From: Escherichia phage 1H12
Length of the DNA stretch: 46,703 nucleotides
Reading direction: 5' to 3' (one strand)
Sequence record: NC_049947.1
This document shows positions 5,747 through 45,625 of this stretch, piece after piece. Numbering within the stretch: position 1 is the first letter of the stretch; each line of letters starts with the position of its first letter. Both the position numbers and the translations under genes were made by a program. A model generated the notes under the pieces. The model made no database searches. It had not been told where the DNA came from and saw only the letters and a list, made by a program, of their open reading frames with translations.

Positions 5747-6079
5747 ATGACGAGCAAAGAAACCTTTACCCATTACCAGCCGCTGGGCAACAGTGACCCG
5801 GCACATACGGCAACCGCGCCCGGCGGATTGAGTGCGAAAGCGCCTGCAATGACCCCGCTGATGCTGGACACCTCCACCCGTAAGCTGGTTGTGTGGGATG
5901 GCACCACCGACGGTGCTGCCGTTGGCATTCTGGCGGTTGCTGCTGACCAGACCAGCACCACGCTGACGTTCTACAAGTCCGGCACGTTCCGTTATGAGGA
6001 TGTGCTCTGGCCGGAGGCTGCCAGCGACGAGACGAAAAAACGGACCGCGTTTGCCGGAACGGCAATCAGCATCGTTTAA
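5747..6079 (+). CDS. D: head decoration protein D
   Basis: ATG at 5747; [22 protein letters not shown] matches lambda gpD. Confidence 0.95.
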
Positions 6080-38680: not shown

Positions 38681-38753
38681 CCATCTACATTACTGAGCTA
38701 ATAACAGGCCTGCTGGTAATCGCAGGCCTTTTTATTTGGGGGAGAGGGAAGTC

Positions 38754-39194
38754 ATGAAAAAACTAACCTTTGAAATTCGATCTCCAGCACATCAGCAAAA
38801 CGCTATTCACGCAGTACAGCAAATCCTTCCAGACCCAACCAAACCAATCGTAGTAACCATTCAGGAACGCAACCGCAGCTTAGACCAAAACAGGAAGCTA
38901 TGGGCCTGCTTAGGTGACGTCTCTCGTCAGGTTGAATGGCATGGTCGCTGGCTGGATGCAGAAAGCTGGAAGTGTGTGTTTACCGCAGCATTAAAGCAGC
39001 AGGATGTTGTTCCTAACCTTGCCGGGAATGGCTTTGTGGTAATAGGCCAGTCAACCAGCAGGATGCGTGTAGGCGAATTTGCGGAGCTATTAGAGCTTAT
39101 ACAGGCATTCGGTACAGAGCGTGGCGTTAAGTGGTCAGACGAAGCGAGACTGGCTCTGGAGTGGAAAGCGAGATGGGGAGATCGGGCTGCATGA
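38754..39194 (+). CDS. ninB: recombination protein NinB
   Basis: ATG at 38754 after RBS gagggaag; MKKLTFEIRSPAHQQNAIHAVQQILPDP matches lambda NinB. Confidence 0.85.
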   Translation: MKKLTFEIRSPAHQQNAIHAVQQILPDPTKPIVVTIQERNRSLDQNRKLWACLGDVSRQVEWHGRWLDAESWKCVFTAALKQQDVVPNLAGNGFVVIGQSTSRMRVGEFAELLELIQAFGTERGVKWSDEARLALEWKARWGDRAA

Positions 39195-39718
39195 CTATCA
39201 AATCAAATACGCCAGCACACGACAAGGACTGCTGGCAAACGCCGCTTTGGCTTTTTGATGCACTGGATATTGAGTTTGGATTCTGGCTGGATTCGGCAGC
39301 GAGCGACAAAAATGCTCTGTGTGCTCACTGGCTAACTGAGGCCGACGACGCGCTCAATTCTGAGTGGGTAAGCCACGGTGCAATCTGGAATAACCCACCG
39401 TACAGCAATATCAGGCCGTGGGTGGAAAAAGCCGCTGAGCAGTGCATACAACAGCGACAGACGGTAGTTATGCTTGTGCCAGAGGATATGTCAGTCGGAT
39501 GGTTCAGCAAGGCTCTGGAGAGTGTCGACGAAGTTCGCATTATCACTGATGGACGGATTAATTTTATCGAACCATCGACAGGGCTGGAGAAGAAGGGAAA
39601 CAGCAAAGGCTCCATGCTGCTGATTTGGCGACCGTTCATCAGTCCTCGACGGATGTTTACTACCGTATCCAAAGCGGCATTGATGGCGATCGGGCAGGGC
39701 GTCAGGAGGGCGGCATGA
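39191..39718 (+). CDS. phage Dam-like DNA N6-adenine methyltransferase
   Basis: 175-aa ORF with the NPPY catalytic motif; start overlaps the ninB stop. Confidence 0.7.
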
Positions 39719-39891
39719 GGCGACAGCGACGAAGTTTCACCGACATCATCTGCGAAAACTGCAAATACCTTCCAACGAAACGCTCCAGAAATAAACGCAA
39801 GCCAATCCCAAAAGAATCTGACGTAAAAACCTTCAATTACACAGCTCACCTGTGGGATATCCGGTGGCTAAGATATCGTGCGAGGAAATGA
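39715..39891 (+). CDS. ninE: NinE protein
   Basis: 58-aa product [30 protein letters not shown]; lambda NinE-like. Confidence 0.7.
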
Positions 39892-40235
39892 CAATGGATT
39901 ATTCACAGTTAAGTGATTTTGAAATTAACAGAATGGTAGGAGACATAATTTTTAAAGGCCTTTGGGCAAGTAAACCGGAAACATCAGGGAATAACACCAA
40001 CAAATGGTATTACGGAAATGCTGATACAACTTTTGAGCCATTAAATCATTTGCCTGACTACTGCAATGATCCGAGCGCTTCATGGCCGATTATTGAGAAA
40101 TACAGGATTTCTATCTTAGACCAGTTAACTGAATGGTGTGTGGATGCAAAAGGCGTAAGCCCAATATTTGATACCAGACCTCTCCGCGCCGCCATTATTG
40201 TCTTTCTCCTGATGCAGGAGGCCAATAATGCTTAG
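39888..40235 (+). CDS. hypothetical nin-region protein
   Basis: ATG at 39888 after RBS gaggaa, overlapping the ninE stop. Confidence 0.55.
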
Positions 40236-40422
40236 CCCATCTCAATCCCTTCAATACCTGAAAGGAAGCATAGAGCGGGCTTCAATGTGCACAGAGTGGA
40301 TTCTATCTAGGTTTAGCGCATACAGAAGATTGCCGGTAAAGGGCATGCCAAGCAAGTCGATGCTGCATATGCAAAAGAATGCGCGCGGGAAGGTATGGCG
40401 AGAACGCAGGTTATCTGGCTGA
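40228..40422 (+). CDS. ninF: NinF-like protein (diverged C-terminus)
   Basis: 64-aa ORF starting [10 protein letters not shown] like lambda NinF. Confidence 0.5.
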
Positions 40423-40441
40423 AAGAGGGGGTAATTAAGGC

Positions 40442-40804
40442 GTGAATACTTACCACATCACACTACCCTGGCCTCCGAGCAATAATCGCTATTATCGCCA
40501 TAATCGCGGGCGCACGCACGTCAGCGCAGAGGGGCAGGCATACCGCGATAACGTCGCCCGAATCATTAAAAACGCAATGCTGGATATCGGCCTGGCGATG
40601 CCTGTGAAAATCCGCATTGAGTGCCACATGCCGGATCGCCGTCGCCGTGACCTGGATAATCTGCAAAAAGCCGCTTTTGACGCACTCACCAAAGCAGGTT
40701 TCTGGCTGGATGATGCTCAGGTCGTTGATTACCGCGTTGTGAAGATGCCTGTTACCAAAGGTGGGAGGCTGGAATTGACCATCACCGAAATGGGGAATGA
40801 ATGA
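40442..40804 (+). CDS. rusA: Holliday junction resolvase RusA
   Basis: 120-aa [31 protein letters not shown] matching DLP12 RusA. Confidence 0.9.
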
Positions 40805-40941
40805 TGTTTGAGTTTTATATGGCAGAACGTCTTCGCCACCGCTGGGTGCGTCTGCGCTTATATCGTTTCCCCGGTTCTGTTTTGACCGATTACCGAATAC
40901 TGAAGAATTACGCCAAAACACTGACAGGAGCAGGAGTATGA
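40801..40941 (+). CDS. ylcG: small protein YlcG-like
   Basis: 46-aa [28 protein letters not shown] directly after rusA, as in DLP12; below the ORF-track size cutoff. Confidence 0.55.
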
Positions 40942-41026
40942 AGTCAGAGATAACAATCAACTAATACTGTTTTGCTGATTTTTGCTTGTAATTGGCGTTC
41001 TGGTCTGATTTTTGTGGAGTAAGTTG

Positions 41027-41404
41027 ATGCGTGATATTCAGATGGTTCTTGAGCGTTGGGGAGCGTGGGCGGCTAATAATCATGAAGATGTGACCTGGTC
41101 GTCCATTGCCGCCGGTTTTAAGGGATTAATTCCTTCAAAAGTAAAATCTCGCCCGCAATGTTGTGACGATGACGCGATGATCATTTGCGGGTGCATGGCC
41201 CGTCTGAAAAATAACAACAGCGATTTGCATGATTTGTTAGTGGACTATTATGTCGGCGGCATGACTTTTATGGCGCTTGCGCGTAAGCATGGTAGATCTG
41301 ATTGTTGGATTGGCAGGATGCTCCAAAAAGCTGAGGGCGTAGTGGAGGGCATGCTGATGGTGTTGGATCTCAGATTGGAGATGGATGCTGATTGTTTGAG
41401 ATAA
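41027..41404 (+). CDS. Q: late-gene antiterminator Q (DLP12 QuuD / phage 82 type)
   Basis: ATG at 41027 after RBS ggagtaag; [33 protein letters not shown]. Confidence 0.8.
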
Positions 41405-41495
41405 TTAAAGGAAAAGTTGCTGTCTGGTTATCATTAGACTAATGTTTCAAATGTTAGAATCGCAACGTAGTTATGATCATATAACAGCTTGTTCC

Positions 41496-41526
41496 CTGAT
41501 TTAGCCAGCCTCCCCAAAGGCTGGTT
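41496..41526 (+). terminator. putative tR'-like rho-independent terminator after the pR'/qut region
   Basis: Hairpin ccagcc-tccccaaa-ggctgg followed by tttttttt. Confidence 0.6.
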
Positions 41527-41560
41527 TTTTTTCTAATAAGTATCAATCCGGTTAGGTATT

Positions 41561-42085
41561 TTATTGTTTGACCCATAATAGTTCATTGACATTGAATCCC
41601 AATTTTTGAGCAGTACGCACATAGTCTGCTTTTACATTATCTGGAATAGTTGGAGTCCGTGCCAGAATCCATAGGTATTCTCTGTTCGGACCACTGACAA
41701 GAGCATATTTATACTCATCATCCAGTTTGATTACATTATAGCCACCATAGAAGGGGCCAAAAAACGAAACCTTCAACGCTGCAGTTGTATTATCTCCTGT
41801 AAAGTATGCTTTACCTTCGCTCTCGCTCCATTTGTTTTTCGTTGGGTCATATCCACGATTAAGTACACTAATCCCTCCGTCGTTCCGTTTCCCATAAGTG
41901 GCGCTGACCTGTTCCAGACCACGTTCAAATCGGTTCTCAAGCCGAGCTATTTCATACCATTTTCCGAGGTAGCGGTTGGTGTCAAAATTTGTAATCGGCT
42001 GCACACCTTTAGGTGGTGTCGGGGCCTTACATGCTATCAGAGTGAAAGAGAGTGCAATGCCAGTCAACACAGGCCATAACTTCAT
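41561..42085 (-). CDS. blc: outer-membrane lipoprotein, bacterial lipocalin Blc family
   Basis: 174-aa ORF with lipoprotein signal and lipobox LIAC; YLGKWYEIARLENRFERG and SFFGPFYGGYNVI match lipocalin motifs. Confidence 0.75.
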   Translation of the reverse strand: MKLWPVLTGIALSFTLIACKAPTPPKGVQPITNFDTNRYLGKWYEIARLENRFERGLEQVSATYGKRNDGGISVLNRGYDPTKNKWSESEGKAYFTGDNTTAALKVSFFGPFYGGYNVIKLDDEYKYALVSGPNREYLWILARTPTIPDNVKADYVRTAQKLGFNVNELLWVKQ

Positions 42086-42277
42086 AATATATCCTGTACT
42101 TTTGATAGTTGAGAGTAAGTATTAAAGATAGATGATTACTACCGATCACTTAAAGAACTTTCCTACTATATTAGGAATAGTCCATAACAAAAAAATTGTC
42201 AGTGATGACGGCAGAAAGGCAGTTTAGGTCGTGTACTACACTGTTAACCTGTTAATGAATTAGTCAAGGGGTAGGCA

Positions 42278-43237
42278 ATGATAAAAAAACCTGTCGTTGG
42301 GATCAGTGGTTGTTTGGCCGGTTCTTCTGTCCGTTTTGATGGTGGTCACAAAAGAGCTAGCTTTTTAATGGACAAATTACTGGAATGGGTAACATTCAAA
42401 CCAGTATGTCCGGAAATGGCTATAGGGCTTCCAGTTCCGCGTCCTGCTCTACGTCTTGTTCGCTCGGCGCAAGGAAATATACGGATGTGTTTCAGCCACG
42501 ACCAGAATGAGGATGTTACAGAGAAAATGACAGAGTTTAGTCGTTCTTATCTTGACAAATTAAAGGATGTATCGGGATTTGTGGTTTGTGCAAAATCTCC
42601 TAGCTGTGGTATGGAACGCGTGCGTGTATATGATGAAAATGGTAATCGTGGTCGTAAAGATGGAGTGGGACTATTTACGAGCACGTTGATGGAAAGGTTT
42701 TCCTGGCTACCGGTTGAAGAGGATGGGCGACTACATGATCCAGTGCTTCGTGAAAACTTTGTTGAAAGAGTATTTGCTTTACATGAGCTCAATCATCTTT
42801 ATAAAGCGAAATTATCAAGAAGGGAATTATTAGCTTTTCATAGCCGTTATAAGCTTCAGTTGTTGGCGCATAGCCAGGCCGGTTATAAAGAGATGGGGCC
42901 ATTTGTGGCTGCAATACATGAGTGGGCAGACCTTGAATCATACTTTGAGGTGTATCGTGAGAAGCTGATGGCGATTCTCAGAAAACCTGCATCACGTAAA
43001 AATCACACGAATGTGCTGATGCATATACAGGGATATTTTAGTAACTGCTTAAATACACGTCAGCGTAAAGAGTTGAGCGATGTTATACTTAACTATCGAG
43101 CTGGCACGCTACCTCTTCTTGCGCCATTAACTTTGCTGAAGCATTACTTGGCAGAGTATCCTGATGATTATTTGCTTATACAGAATTACTTCCACCCCTA
43201 TCCTGATGAACTGGCTCTAAGACTCTTGGTGAACTAG
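42278..43237 (+). CDS. DUF523 (TudS-like) / DUF1722 (YbgA-like) two-domain protein
   Basis: 319-aa ORF; N-terminal GISGCLAG...VCPE Cys pattern typical of DUF523, C-terminal half YbgA-like. Confidence 0.6.
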   Translation: MIKKPVVGISGCLAGSSVRFDGGHKRASFLMDKLLEWVTFKPVCPEMAIGLPVPRPALRLVRSAQGNIRMCFSHDQNEDVTEKMTEFSRSYLDKLKDVSGFVVCAKSPSCGMERVRVYDENGNRGRKDGVGLFTSTLMERFSWLPVEEDGRLHDPVLRENFVERVFALHELNHLYKAKLSRRELLAFHSRYKLQLLAHSQAGYKEMGPFVAAIHEWADLESYFEVYREKLMAILRKPASRKNHTNVLMHIQGYFSNCLNTRQRKELSDVILNYRAGTLPLLAPLTLLKHYLAEYPDDYLLIQNYFHPYPDELALRLLVN

Positions 43238-43546
43238 GCGTTTGGAATGCACCAACAAGATGATTTTCTCCTTAGAGAATGTTTACAATCGTAAAAACTT
43301 CACTATGATATCTATAGTTGTACAGTTTGTAAAAAAATTCGGTTCATGCTTAAGGTAATGTTAATATGTTAATTAATGATTAATAATCAAGCAAGCCAAA
43401 AATAGTTCTGTTTAATCTAGTATTACATAAATATTTTAAAGAAAATATCAAAGTTCATGATGATATAATGAGGTTTTTCTCATTGAAAATATGGCAATTT
43501 TAATATTTCCACCTATACTTACTTAACTCAAATCTAATTATGTCAG

Positions 43547-44287
43547 GTGGATGGTATGCCATGCATATGTTCTATCATTTTGGTTTTGAACTCGTTTGAT
43601 ATCCGGCTTGGTAAAGAAAAAATCTCTCTAAAAAAAGGAAGTGTTGTTGCTATAGAATACAATTTAAAAGTTTTCTTTTCTTCAAATAAAGATAATATAA
43701 TGATCGTGGATATTGAAGAGAAAACAGTTAATGACTTCTTTAAAAACAATACACTCTCACCTTTTTCTGTAAGAAGATTTTATTCAGCATACTTGATAGT
43801 AAACTGTACAGACTATTCATTGTTAAAGAACTTGATAGGTTGCTTGAATTGTGATGGTGAAACTACGGCTGTAGTTAAAAATTCAATATTATTTGCATGT
43901 CTTGCTATTTTATCCTCGGAAAAAATGTTTCAGAGTTTTTTGTTTGGGTGTCTTAATAGTTTAGGAAGCAAAGTTAAGGCTATTATTCACTCGGACATAT
44001 CTGCAGCATGGAGACTTTGTGATATTTCTTCAAGACTATGTCTGAGTGAAAGTTTGTTAAAAAGAAAACTAAAACACGAAGGCTTATCATTTAGCAAATT
44101 AATTCTTGAAGAACGAATGGTGATGGCTGAAAGGTTATTAAGCTACAATTTCTATCCTGTTGGGAAAGTTGCTAAAATATGTGGTTATGAAAGCGCGTCA
44201 TATTTTATAAGTGTTTTCAGAAGATATTTTGGTGTTCCCCCCCATGAATATTCATCAAGATTTTTTTTAGAAAAAGGCAAGATGTAA
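43547..44287 (+). CDS. AraC-family transcriptional regulator (AppY-like)
   Basis: 246-aa ORF in a very AT-rich island with a C-terminal AraC-type HTH (KVAKICGYESASYFISVFRRYFGVPPHEY). Confidence 0.75.
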   Translation: MDGMPCICSIILVLNSFDIRLGKEKISLKKGSVVAIEYNLKVFFSSNKDNIMIVDIEEKTVNDFFKNNTLSPFSVRRFYSAYLIVNCTDYSLLKNLIGCLNCDGETTAVVKNSILFACLAILSSEKMFQSFLFGCLNSLGSKVKAIIHSDISAAWRLCDISSRLCLSESLLKRKLKHEGLSFSKLILEERMVMAERLLSYNFYPVGKVAKICGYESASYFISVFRRYFGVPPHEYSSRFFLEKGKM

Positions 44288-44349
44288 CGTGATGCGTTTT
44301 GATGATTTTGTAATTTTCATATTTGATGATTATATGATGCTTTCAGCTA

Positions 44350-44378
44350 CGCCAGAATAATCGCTGGCGTTTTTCTTT
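44350..44378 (+). terminator. putative rho-independent terminator after the AraC-family gene
   Basis: Hairpin cgccag-aataat-cgctggcg followed by ttttt. Confidence 0.5.
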
Positions 44379-44454
44379 TCTAATGTAACTTCTGTATCTT
44401 TCCCTCTTTCATTCCAAACCGTGTACACCATCCGTTATTCGCGGAGGTGAGGCT

Positions 44455-44670
44455 ATGAAATCCATGGACAAGTTAACAACGGGCATTGCCTACGGCACCT
44501 CTGCAGGCAGTGCTGGCTACTGGTTTTTACAGTGGCTTGATCAGGTCAGTCCGTCACAGTGGGCGGCGATTGGAGTGCTTGGAAGCCTTGTGTTGGGTTT
44601 TCTCACTTATCTGACAAACCTTTATTTCAAGATTAAAGAAGATAAGCGTAAGGCTGCGAGAGGTGAATAA
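44455..44670 (+). CDS. S: pinholin S (phage 21 S21 type, dual-start Met1/Met4)
   Basis: 71-aa [43 protein letters not shown], near-identical to phage 21 S21. Confidence 0.9.
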
Positions 44671-45167
44671 TGTCGCCATCATTACGCAAGGCTGTAGCAG
44701 CTGCTATTGGTGGTGGGGCTGTTGCCATAGCGTCTGTGCTCATCACTGGTCCGAGTGGTGACGATGGTCTGGAAGGTGTCAGCTACATACCATATAAAGA
44801 TATTGTTGGTGTATGGACTGTATGTCACGGGCATACAGGAAAAGACATCATGCTCGGTAAAACGTATACCAAAGCAGAATGCAAAGCACTCTTGAATAAA
44901 GACCTTGCCACTGTCGCCAGACAAATTAACCCGTACATCAAAGTCGATATACCGGAAACAACGCGCGGCGCTCTTTACTCATTCGTTTACAACGTGGGTG
45001 CTGGCAATTTCAGAACATCGACGCTTCTTCGCAAAATAAACCAGGGCGATATCAAAGGCGCATGTGATCAGTTACGTCGCTGGACATATGCTGGCGGTAA
45101 GCAATGGAAAGGTCTCATGACTCGTCGTGAGATTGAGCGTGAAATCTGTTTGTGGGGTCAGCAATGA
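44670..45167 (+). CDS. R: SAR endolysin (signal-anchor-release lysozyme, phage 21 R21 type)
   Basis: 165-aa ORF with an N-terminal Gly/Ala-rich SAR segment followed by a T4-lysozyme-like domain. Confidence 0.9.
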
Positions 45168-45625
45168 ACAGAGTAACCGCGATTATCTCCGCTCTGGTTA
45201 TCTGCATCATCGTCTGCCTGTCATGGGCTGTTAATCATTACCGTGATAACGCCATTACCTACAAAGCCCAGCGCGACAAAAATGCCAGAGAACTGAAGCT
45301 GGCGAACGCGGCAATTACTGACATGCAGATGCGTCAGCGTGATGTTGCTGCGCTCGATGCAAAATACACGAAGGAGTTAGCTGATGCGAAAGCTGAAAAT
45401 GATGCTCTGCGTGATGATGTTGCCGCTGGTCGTCGTCGGTTGCACATCAAAGCAGTCTGTCAGTCAGTGCGTGAAGCCACCACCGCCTCCGGCGTGGATA
45501 ATGCAGCCTCCCCCCGACTGGCAGACACCGCTGAACGGGATTATTTCACCCTCAGAGAGAGGCTGATCACGATGCAAAAACAACTGGAAGGAACCCAGAA
45601 GTATATTAATGAGCAGTGCAGATAG
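45164..45625 (+). CDS. Rz: i-spanin Rz
   Basis: ATG at 45164; [30 protein letters not shown] matches lambda Rz. Confidence 0.9.
45384..45566 (+). CDS. Rz1: o-spanin Rz1 (embedded in the +1 frame of Rz)
   Basis: 60-aa lipoprotein with lipobox and proline-rich region (VVVGCTSKQ...PPPPPAW), as lambda Rz1. Confidence 0.85.

Follow-up and report, generated by a model that had tools for sequence, protein, structure and literature searches.

Escherichia phage 1H12 (sequence record NC_049947.1; 46,703 nt, the full length of which is called the window here) carries about 3 kb of DNA between its late antiterminator gene Q and its lysis genes, and we consider it likely that this island is an accessory stress cassette, i.e. 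a moron, combining an outer-membrane lipocalin (blc), a tRNA 4-thiouridine (s4U) desulfidase (rudS) and a transcriptional regulator of the AraC family. Judged by comparison with chromosomal loci, blc and rudS appear to be a divergent pair that was copied from an enterobacterial chromosome, where the pair has light- and photo-oxidative-stress neighbours. The cassette travels with a P21/DLP12-type Q and lysis module in lambdoid prophages of E. coli, and its two parts are of different origin. Gene content, domains, residues, origin of the pair, conservation, selection and prevalence come from the present analysis, and RudS activity is taken from the literature; any particular ecological benefit is put forward with much less confidence than the overall reading. 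The three genes are:

41561..42085, reverse strand: blc-like outer-membrane lipoprotein lipocalin, 174 amino acids (aa); Pfam Lipocalin_2 (PF08212), 2.2e-43
42278..43237, forward strand: rudS, fusion of a TudS/DUF523 [4Fe-4S] desulfidase and DUF1722, 319 aa; full-length Pfam matches to both
43556..44287, forward strand: AraC/XylS-family regulator of the PatE/YdeO/AppY group, 243 aa, 31% GC; Pfam HTH_18 and HTH_AraC

A three-gene cassette between Q and the lysis genes

An earlier sequence-only reading of the window had proposed a three-gene island of ~3 kb between Q/tR' and the lysis genes, and the list of open reading frames (ORFs) together with Pfam indeed yields three intact genes within 41405-44454, at the places and on the strands that it had given. 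The G/C content of the island is 0.374 and that of the whole window 0.50; the part that had been described as very AT-rich (43240..44300) has a G/C content of 0.26-0.34 over 43250-44300. Two genes border the island:

41027..41404, forward strand: late antiterminator Q of the P21/DLP12 QuuD type, left border of the cassette; Pfam Phage_antitermQ, 2.5e-51
44455..44670, forward strand: P21-type holin S, first lysis gene and right border of the cassette; Pfam Phage_holin_2_1, 3e-35

The Q ORF is open from a TTG at 41012, and its product shares 88% aa identity with K-12 QuuD; holin S is 91.5% identical to K-12 EssD and is followed by lysozyme, Rz and Bor. The whole Q-to-lysis stretch (41000-44700) shows 99.9-100% identity with nine temperate coliphages of infant gut samples (e.g. 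Lambda_ev245, ev066 and 2E9). Lambda_ev245, a near-identical relative of the window in which Q is annotated as such, belongs to the genus Jouyvirus, of which 1H12 is the type of one species; its annotation gives the order Q, 'Lipocalin Blc', 'COG1683 / YbgA', hypothetical proteins, holin S, lysozyme, Rz and Bor. According to the annotation of this near-identical phage, the region upstream of Q (38736-40941) holds homologues of NinB, a DNA N6-adenine methyltransferase, NinE, NinX, RusA and YlcG.

Lambda differs, as had been claimed: there Q ends at 44509 and S starts at 45186, and the gap of 676 bp contains orf-64 alone and none of the three island genes. In DLP12 (K-12) and in ev243, a reverse-strand porin gene is framed by a Q and a holin that resemble those of the window (88% and 91.5% identity). 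When the window is aligned to these two, the similarity ends at the last codons of Q and restarts ~25 nt before the start codon of S, at its ribosome-binding site, which argues that the whole interval, including the promoter-terminator segment, is an alternative module. In fact, nmpC/OmpD porin cargo (DLP12, ev243, mEp332) occupies exactly this slot, with Q and a terminator on one side and the holin gene on the other, and since many further relatives likewise hold a porin there, the suggestion that this is a cargo site holds. Like blc in the island, nmpC in the slot is found on the reverse strand. In Stx phages, the Shiga toxin genes occupy the same slot. The porin-carrying relatives, however, have one porin gene, whereas the island is a three-gene cassette of two origins. 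As expected of a moron in this slot, the island has a position between Q/terminator and the lysis genes, is absent from lambda and is replaced by other cargo in close relatives.

RudS, a predicted tRNA 4-thiouridine desulfidase

Why a phage would carry a thio-base-related enzyme had been called unexplained in the sequence-only reading. This is no longer so, as fusions of TudS (DUF523) with DUF1722 were published in 2024 as RudS, a tRNA 4-thiouridine desulfidase which strips s4U from tRNA in vivo and in vitro by means of a [4Fe-4S] cluster (PMC11417400). The two-domain build itself had been recognized correctly: the N-terminal 2-thiour_desulf/DUF523 domain (PF04463, 3.6e-40) covers residues 7-149 and positions 1-141 of the 141 of the profile, and the C-terminal DUF1722 domain (PF08349, 1.3e-40) covers residues 192-309 and positions 1-117 of 117. 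A phmmer search also matches the protein to TudS (6z92), with Cys12, Cys44 and Cys110 aligned with Cys10, Cys43 and Cys104 of TudS; all three are invariant in 66 of 66 homologues. Glu46, Arg55, Ser107 and Ser109 are present as well, the first three of them invariant in the 66 homologues and position 109 being Ser in 61 and Thr in 5. These residues match E51, R60, S111 and S113 of RudS_KT, a correspondence set by the cysteine offset and the TudS alignment, and mutating the corresponding Glu, Arg and two Ser of RudS_KT abolished activity (PMC11417400).

The same TudS/DUF523 plus DUF1722 build is shared by RudS_vir, RudS_KT (Pseudomonas putida) and RudS_ST/ORF319 (Salmonella), and the 319 aa of the island protein equal the length of RudS_ST. 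Every RudS variant tested lowered s4U in the tRNA of E. coli, including RudS_vir, which derives from phage 1H12, and overexpressed RudS_KT reduced the growth delay of E. coli under ultraviolet A (UVA) (PMC11417400). The cysteines of RudS_vir are given as Cys12/44/110, a numbering that also applies to RudS_ST (PMC11417400, Table 1). By analogy with RudS_vir, the island protein would remove s4U from tRNA: its [4Fe-4S] cluster, held by Cys12/44/110, would convert 4-thiouridine of host tRNA to uridine, and this loss of s4U would remove the near-UV chromophore whose C13 crosslink leads to uncharged tRNA, accumulation of guanosine tetraphosphate (ppGpp) and growth delay. In addition, loss of s4U shifts the abundance of some tRNAs (PMC11417400). 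The island RudS is 100% identical in nine sequenced phages, and its sequence forms a UniRef100 cluster of 10 members with the common taxon 'root'.

The lipocalin and the origin of the blc-rudS pair

The reverse-strand lipocalin with the lipobox LIAC that had been proposed is supported by Pfam (given in the list above) and by its N-terminus, MKLWPVLTGIALSFTLIAC followed by K; judged by eye against the lipobox rule, there is no Asp at +2. The protein passes the cutoff of the Blc subfamily NCBIfam NF007786 (315.5 bits vs. 267), and its match to E. coli Blc in the PDB (3mbt, 2.6e-69) has 64% identity over 155 aa. With E. coli Blc (PDB 1qwd, 2aco, 3mbt) it shares the Lipocalin_2 fold family, the lipobox Cys and the length. 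It would thus be exported and, after lipidation at Cys19, be attached to the outer membrane, where, going by its identity with E. coli Blc, it may bind lysophospholipids or fatty acids and aid envelope maintenance. Relative to E. coli Blc, however, the phage gene is a second copy that is closer to the rudS-adjacent blc of Kluyvera, Enterobacter, Kosakonia and Buttiauxella: the phage protein is 73-81% identical to chromosomal Blc copies adjoining rudS in other enterobacteria. The blc gene of E. coli itself could be ruled out as the source (64% identity vs. up to 81% for the rudS-linked copies elsewhere). A blc gene has been listed as a moron in more than half of the lambda-like phages of a gut phage collection (PMC6969025).

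We scanned one genome per species for relatives of RudS, which gave 72 loci, and identified the neighbouring genes by tblastn and Pfam. The identity to the phage protein is 68-76% in Enterobacterales and 45-54% in Vibrionaceae and Shewanella. Four layouts recur among the 72 loci: rudS with an optional MerR gene, photolyase, SnoaL, SDR and FAD amine oxidase (AmOx) (14 loci); SnoaL, SDR, AmOx, DUF1365, CMAS (cyclopropane-fatty-acid-synthase-like), DUF2878, DUF3833 and rudS (20 loci, among others in Klebsiella, Serratia, Pectobacterium and Yersinia); blc in the orientation opposite to rudS, with the gene of an MlrA-like MerR regulator between the two (~9 loci; Kosakonia, Buttiauxella, Enterobacter, Raoultella); and blc back-to-back with rudS, ~115 bp apart and divergent as in the phage (~11 loci, mostly Kluyvera). 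SnoaL, SDR, AmOx, DUF1365 and CMAS make up a lipid-modifying cluster. One Buttiauxella locus has two further neighbours, a BLUF-EAL blue-light sensor and another MlrA-like gene. The placement of rudS in light-responsive operons has been reported previously (PMC11417400); the recurrent partnership of blc and rudS is what the present loci add. Since phage Blc is closer to these partner copies than to E. coli Blc, the pair was probably taken as a unit from such a neighbourhood. A donor species was considered and is not named: the best chromosomal matches reach just 76% (RudS) and 81% (Blc), with a far higher G/C content at third codon positions (GC3).

Two further observations were made in these searches. 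Photobacterium sp. Ph5 (L061, 6001-8246) has two tandem rudS paralogues (53% and 49% identity with the phage protein), which are followed by a MerR gene and a photolyase. Pieces of the cassette (Q, blc, rudS, araC, S) with 82-98% aa identity occur on two contigs of a 'Candidatus Nanosynbacter' metagenome-assembled genome (L058, 3209 bp; L077, 2113 bp), which almost certainly represent binning contamination.

Loss of the ancestral regulator and its probable operator

Between the two genes lies the region that would control both:

42086..42277, no strand: divergent blc-rudS control region, aligned with 19 chromosomal loci

In these 19 loci, all chromosomal blc genes next to rudS have CTACACTTAA, a sigma-S-like -10 element, ~35 nt upstream of the start codon; the phage counterpart is TAATACTTA, and TAATACTT (42117-42124, minus strand) aligns with the conserved CTACACTTAA. 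The first ~100 bp of the phage spacer align with the chromosomal intergenic region between blc and the MlrA-like gene, and the plus-strand TATATT (42167-42172) falls opposite the promoter region of the latter; by this alignment, the -10-like elements may act as promoters. Chromosomal rudS is preceded by an inverted repeat that is conserved among the loci, AAACTTrgACAAA-N8-10-TTTGTGTAAGTTT, with a TATACT -10 element after it. The repeat lies ~40-90 nt upstream of rudS (L012, L033, L037, L041, L059 and others; locus position ~5910-5960) and is likely, as a candidate, the operator of the adjacent MlrA-like MerR regulator. Neither an inverted-repeat search nor the alignment with the chromosomal loci revealed such an operator palindrome upstream of phage rudS, and the ORF list and Pfam gave no MerR-type gene in the island. 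An 11-nt palindrome at 42231-42241 (GTGTACTACAC) was examined as a possible MerR/MlrA-type operator and rejected, as it is not conserved in the other island variant and was therefore judged to be due to chance. Chromosomal rudS genes have a MerR/LitR/MlrA-type regulator beside them and often a photolyase, whereas phage rudS has neither regulator nor operator and lies in the path of late transcription. Thus, the pair derives from, but no longer belongs to, the light operons controlled by MerR/LitR/MlrA-type proteins, and its expression would no longer be light-gated in the ancestral manner.

Prevalence and selection

Matches to the island occur in 1152 of 5426 complete E. coli genomes, almost always in the chromosome, and in 683 of them at least 80% of the island is covered. 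It is found in DLP12-like and Qin-like prophages, always between Q and the holin gene. E. coli is said to lack RudS (PMC11417400, PMC13602947); this is true of K-12, but not of E. coli as a species. Among the best 80 IMG/VR viral contigs, 62 show the order Q (+), blc (-), rudS (+), araC (+), S (+), every gene being complete; taken singly, blc is full length in 79 and rudS in all 80. Across island variants (dS 0.2-0.6), the ratio of nonsynonymous to synonymous substitution rates (dN/dS) amounts to 0.06-0.19 in blc, 0.10-0.21 in rudS and 0.22-0.27 in the regulator gene. Purifying selection together with the near-universal intactness of blc and rudS argues for functional genes rather than debris, and the same values (dN/dS 0.06-0.27 over the three genes) are consistent with the earlier proposal of lysogenic-conversion cargo.

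Several E. coli genomes have insertion sequence (IS) elements of the types IS1, IS2 and IS3 within the island or next to it. In E. coli MB20 (L003, 3362-9288), for example, the cassette lies in a Qin-type prophage beside relBE, hokD and ydfU, where Q is interrupted by an IS3 and a second IS3 separates rudS from the regulator gene; a remnant of the matching 3' end of Q accompanies the cassette.

The AraC-family regulator

The third gene was most likely acquired independently: the regulator is missing from the chromosomal blc-rudS neighbourhoods, which argues for separate acquisition. It is preceded by a spacer:

43238..43555, no strand: AT-rich spacer, 27% GC, upstream of the regulator gene; by composition

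The spacer contains several promoter-like matches on both strands, which are at chance level, and its palindromes are all AT-rich. The start codon of the regulator is most likely the ATG at 43556 rather than the GTG at 43547. A regulator gene and spacer of such low G/C content are typical of horizontally acquired regulators that are silenced by H-NS.

The regulator had been described as an AppY-like member of the AraC family. The family assignment stands (HTH_18, 2.9e-15; HTH_AraC, 1.7e-12; DNA-binding domain of GadX, 3mkl, 5.4e-21), but the similarity to AppY is only 30% over 235 aa, comparable values being found for EnvY (32%), whereas ECs_0287 of E. coli Sakai (O157, prophage Sp1) has 53% identity over 235 aa, i.e. 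over the full length including the N-terminal domain. The best NCBIfam match is YdeO (positions 1-233 of 253), with 112.7 bits vs. a cutoff of 348, and the protein falls below every NCBIfam equivalog cutoff and is not an orthologue of AppY or YdeO. The term 'AppY-like' thus applies only loosely, and the regulator is better regarded as a separate member of the family. ECs_0287, the closest characterised relative by sequence that we found, is taken by us to be PatE (Z0321), an assumption based on its island (OI-8/Sp1) and size. A tblastn search of the regulator against 50 kb spanning most of Sakai prophage Sp6, which presumably carries the effector genes associated with OI-50, gave no match that would show a relation to PsrA/PsrB. 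The family is narrow, with 24 clusters in a search of 5.8 billion proteins, essentially all from E. coli.

PatE resembles the island regulator in size, in its AT-rich gene and in its carriage by a lambdoid prophage, and AppY is prophage-borne too; PatE differs in that it is located at the end of the remnant prophage Sp1, outside the Q-S slot and without blc-rudS. PatE activates gadE, gadBC and hdeAB and lowers the expression of LEE, the enterocyte effacement locus, and PsrB also activates acid-resistance promoters of the gadE/hdeA type (review PMC10877973). The island regulator would, most likely, act on host stress promoters of the acid-resistance type in the lysogen.

Transcription signals and expected expression

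Three candidate signals flank the genes:

41376..41405, forward strand: candidate late promoter pR'; consensus scan, 9 of 12 matches (TGGAGA, 18-nt spacer, TG-extended GATAAT)
41503..41534, forward strand: candidate tR' intrinsic terminator, GC-rich stem of 9 bp with U8 after it; terminator scan
44349..44378, forward strand: terminator-like hairpin between the regulator gene and S, 7-bp stem with U-rich tail; terminator scan

The first two are candidates for pR' and tR', assigned by position alone. The -10 element of the candidate pR' overlaps the stop codon of Q, and this promoter is kept in other island variants and differs in DLP12 and ev243; indeed, the entire candidate pR'/tR' segment is unlike that of the latter two. 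The candidate tR', ~100-120 nt downstream of the candidate pR', folds with -14.2 kcal/mol (z = -3.2). The hairpin at 44349-44378 (-11.3 kcal/mol, z = -3.2) is also kept in other island variants, in which 23 nt (TGAATAGATGTTCAAGCCTTACG) directly follow it that are absent from the window at ~44379. A tRNA scan found no tRNA genes in the region, and an Rfam scan of the region gave a single, sub-threshold match, namely the candidate tR' hairpin, and no hidden RNA gene. Possible signals of the island's own are the terminator-like hairpin after the regulator gene and the -10-like elements that align to chromosomal promoter regions, along with promoter-like matches at chance level.

Since the cassette lies downstream of the candidate tR', it would be shielded from pR' in the lysogen and depend on its own promoters. 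After induction, the Q-modified RNA polymerase must traverse the cassette to reach S, and the late transcript would contain rudS and the regulator gene in sense and blc in antisense orientation. This course of transcription is read from gene geometry. Most likely, low-level expression from remnants of the ancestral promoters in the lysogen would supply the lipocalin and an s4U eraser that would blunt near-UV damage signalling and help envelope upkeep, while the PatE-like regulator would tune host stress genes; upon induction, the late transcript would add rudS and regulator mRNA. In this way the cassette may benefit the lysogen.

Points against the cassette reading and alternative explanations

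Several results weigh against an accessory stress cassette with these roles. The tRNA desulfidation by RudS_vir was weaker than that by other RudS proteins despite good protein levels, and among the RudS variants it had the shortest lag on 4-thiouracil (PMC11417400), which hints at a second or a different substrate. The island RudS, moreover, is likely, but not by a residue-by-residue match, the same protein as RudS_vir. The light-stress link of the pair is drawn from gene neighbourhood alone, the light-responsive regulator has been lost from the phage copy, and the selective benefit is uncertain for a gut bacterium that meets little light. The GC3 of phage rudS is 0.37 compared with 0.57-0.81 in the sampled enterobacterial chromosomal homologues; this gap either leaves the donor lineage unnamed or reflects a long stay of the gene in AT-rich phage DNA. 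In ~16 of the 80 IMG/VR contigs the regulator gene is broken or incomplete, so that it may be dispensable, and in a consensus scan promoter-like matches are no more common in the island than in shuffled sequence.

One alternative, which we think rather unlikely to be the main role, is that RudS acts mainly as a helper of the lytic cycle, i.e. as an auxiliary metabolic gene expressed by the Q-modified polymerase from pR'; it would keep host translation going after induction by UV or sunlight, or reshape the tRNA pool during late expression. This is compatible with the cassette reading. The geometry speaks for it, as rudS and the regulator gene are co-oriented with late transcription and lie between the candidate tR' and S, so that they are part of any late transcript; the cassette is always tied to one Q type (median identity 98%), no strong independent rudS promoter was found, the ancestral operator is lost, and the loss of s4U changes some tRNA abundances (PMC11417400). 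However, crosslinks formed before induction could not be reversed by RudS, and late expression leaves scant time for a turnover of the tRNA pool. Close relatives hold a porin in the slot, and hence lytic growth requires none of its content; blc is oriented against the late transcript, and the pair is kept in defective DLP12-like and Qin-like prophages that make no phage.

It appears improbable that the substrates of RudS are, as for stand-alone TudS, thiolated bases or nucleotides in free form, in a salvage or detoxification of 4-thiouracil or 4-thio-uridine monophosphate (4-thio-UMP) from tRNA turnover into the uracil/UMP pool. The TudS domain is intact and lacks none of its catalytic residues, the short lag of RudS_vir on 4-thiouracil was seen in a uracil auxotroph (PMC11417400), and TudS enzymes are reported to recycle 4-thio-UMP (PMC10611767). 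Yet none of the RudS proteins sustained growth in the way of TudS, and according to the authors the main substrates are not thiouracils, while s4U of tRNA was lowered by all RudS variants tested (PMC11417400); the full tRNA-binding DUF1722 domain, too, is retained under purifying selection.

We regard it as very improbable that the cassette guards the lysogen against other phages, with Blc as a surface or superinfection-exclusion lipoprotein and RudS altering tRNAs against tRNA-targeting toxins or incoming phages. Many of the morons of lambdoid phages encode outer-membrane proteins, and membrane morons prevail in the gut phage collection (PMC6969025); furthermore, tRNA modifications can be determinants for anticodon nucleases (PMC13602947). 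However, none of the three island proteins, all of which fall into PHROG families of unknown function, matched a PADLOC defence family, s4U8 is distant from the anticodon loop that known tRNA nucleases recognise, and Blc is close to the housekeeping lipocalin, its chromosomal counterparts lying in stress clusters and not in defence islands.

That the three genes are passenger DNA in decay and have no function today, as the IS elements in or near the island, the regulator split in ~20% of the viral contigs and the AT-rich, probably silenced region might suggest, is scarcely credible in view of dN/dS values well under 1 for all three genes, full-length blc and rudS in 79-80 of 80 viral contigs, intact catalytic residues and a phage RudS that is active in E. 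coli.

Implications

As a moron cassette in the Q-S slot, the island is of a known kind, and two of its three genes had been noted or tested in print. The new aspects are the captured blc-rudS pair with its lost regulator and operator, the affinity of the regulator to PatE rather than AppY, the high prevalence, the transcriptional geometry and purifying selection on all genes. The pair provides a clean example of capture, in which two neighbouring genes were taken from a chromosomal light-stress cluster and the regulator was dropped.

Tentatively, and with more doubt than confidence, we propose that about one in five E. coli strains owes an s4U 'eraser' of tRNA to a prophage: blc-rudS would have been lifted from a light-stress regulon, freed from its light-sensing repressor and put into the late transcript, and removal of s4U would protect the lysogen from near-UV outside the gut, or would secure or re-bias translation upon induction by sunlight, via s4U-dependent tRNA stability. 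If this is true, it would represent a phage-driven shift in the tRNA modification state of the host, with strain-level effects on sunlight survival and phage yield. The RudS literature uses E. coli as a RudS-free null background, but the cassette is common in the species. Part of the variation among strains in tRNA s4U content, in growth delay under UVA and in inactivation by sunlight could stem from this prophage.

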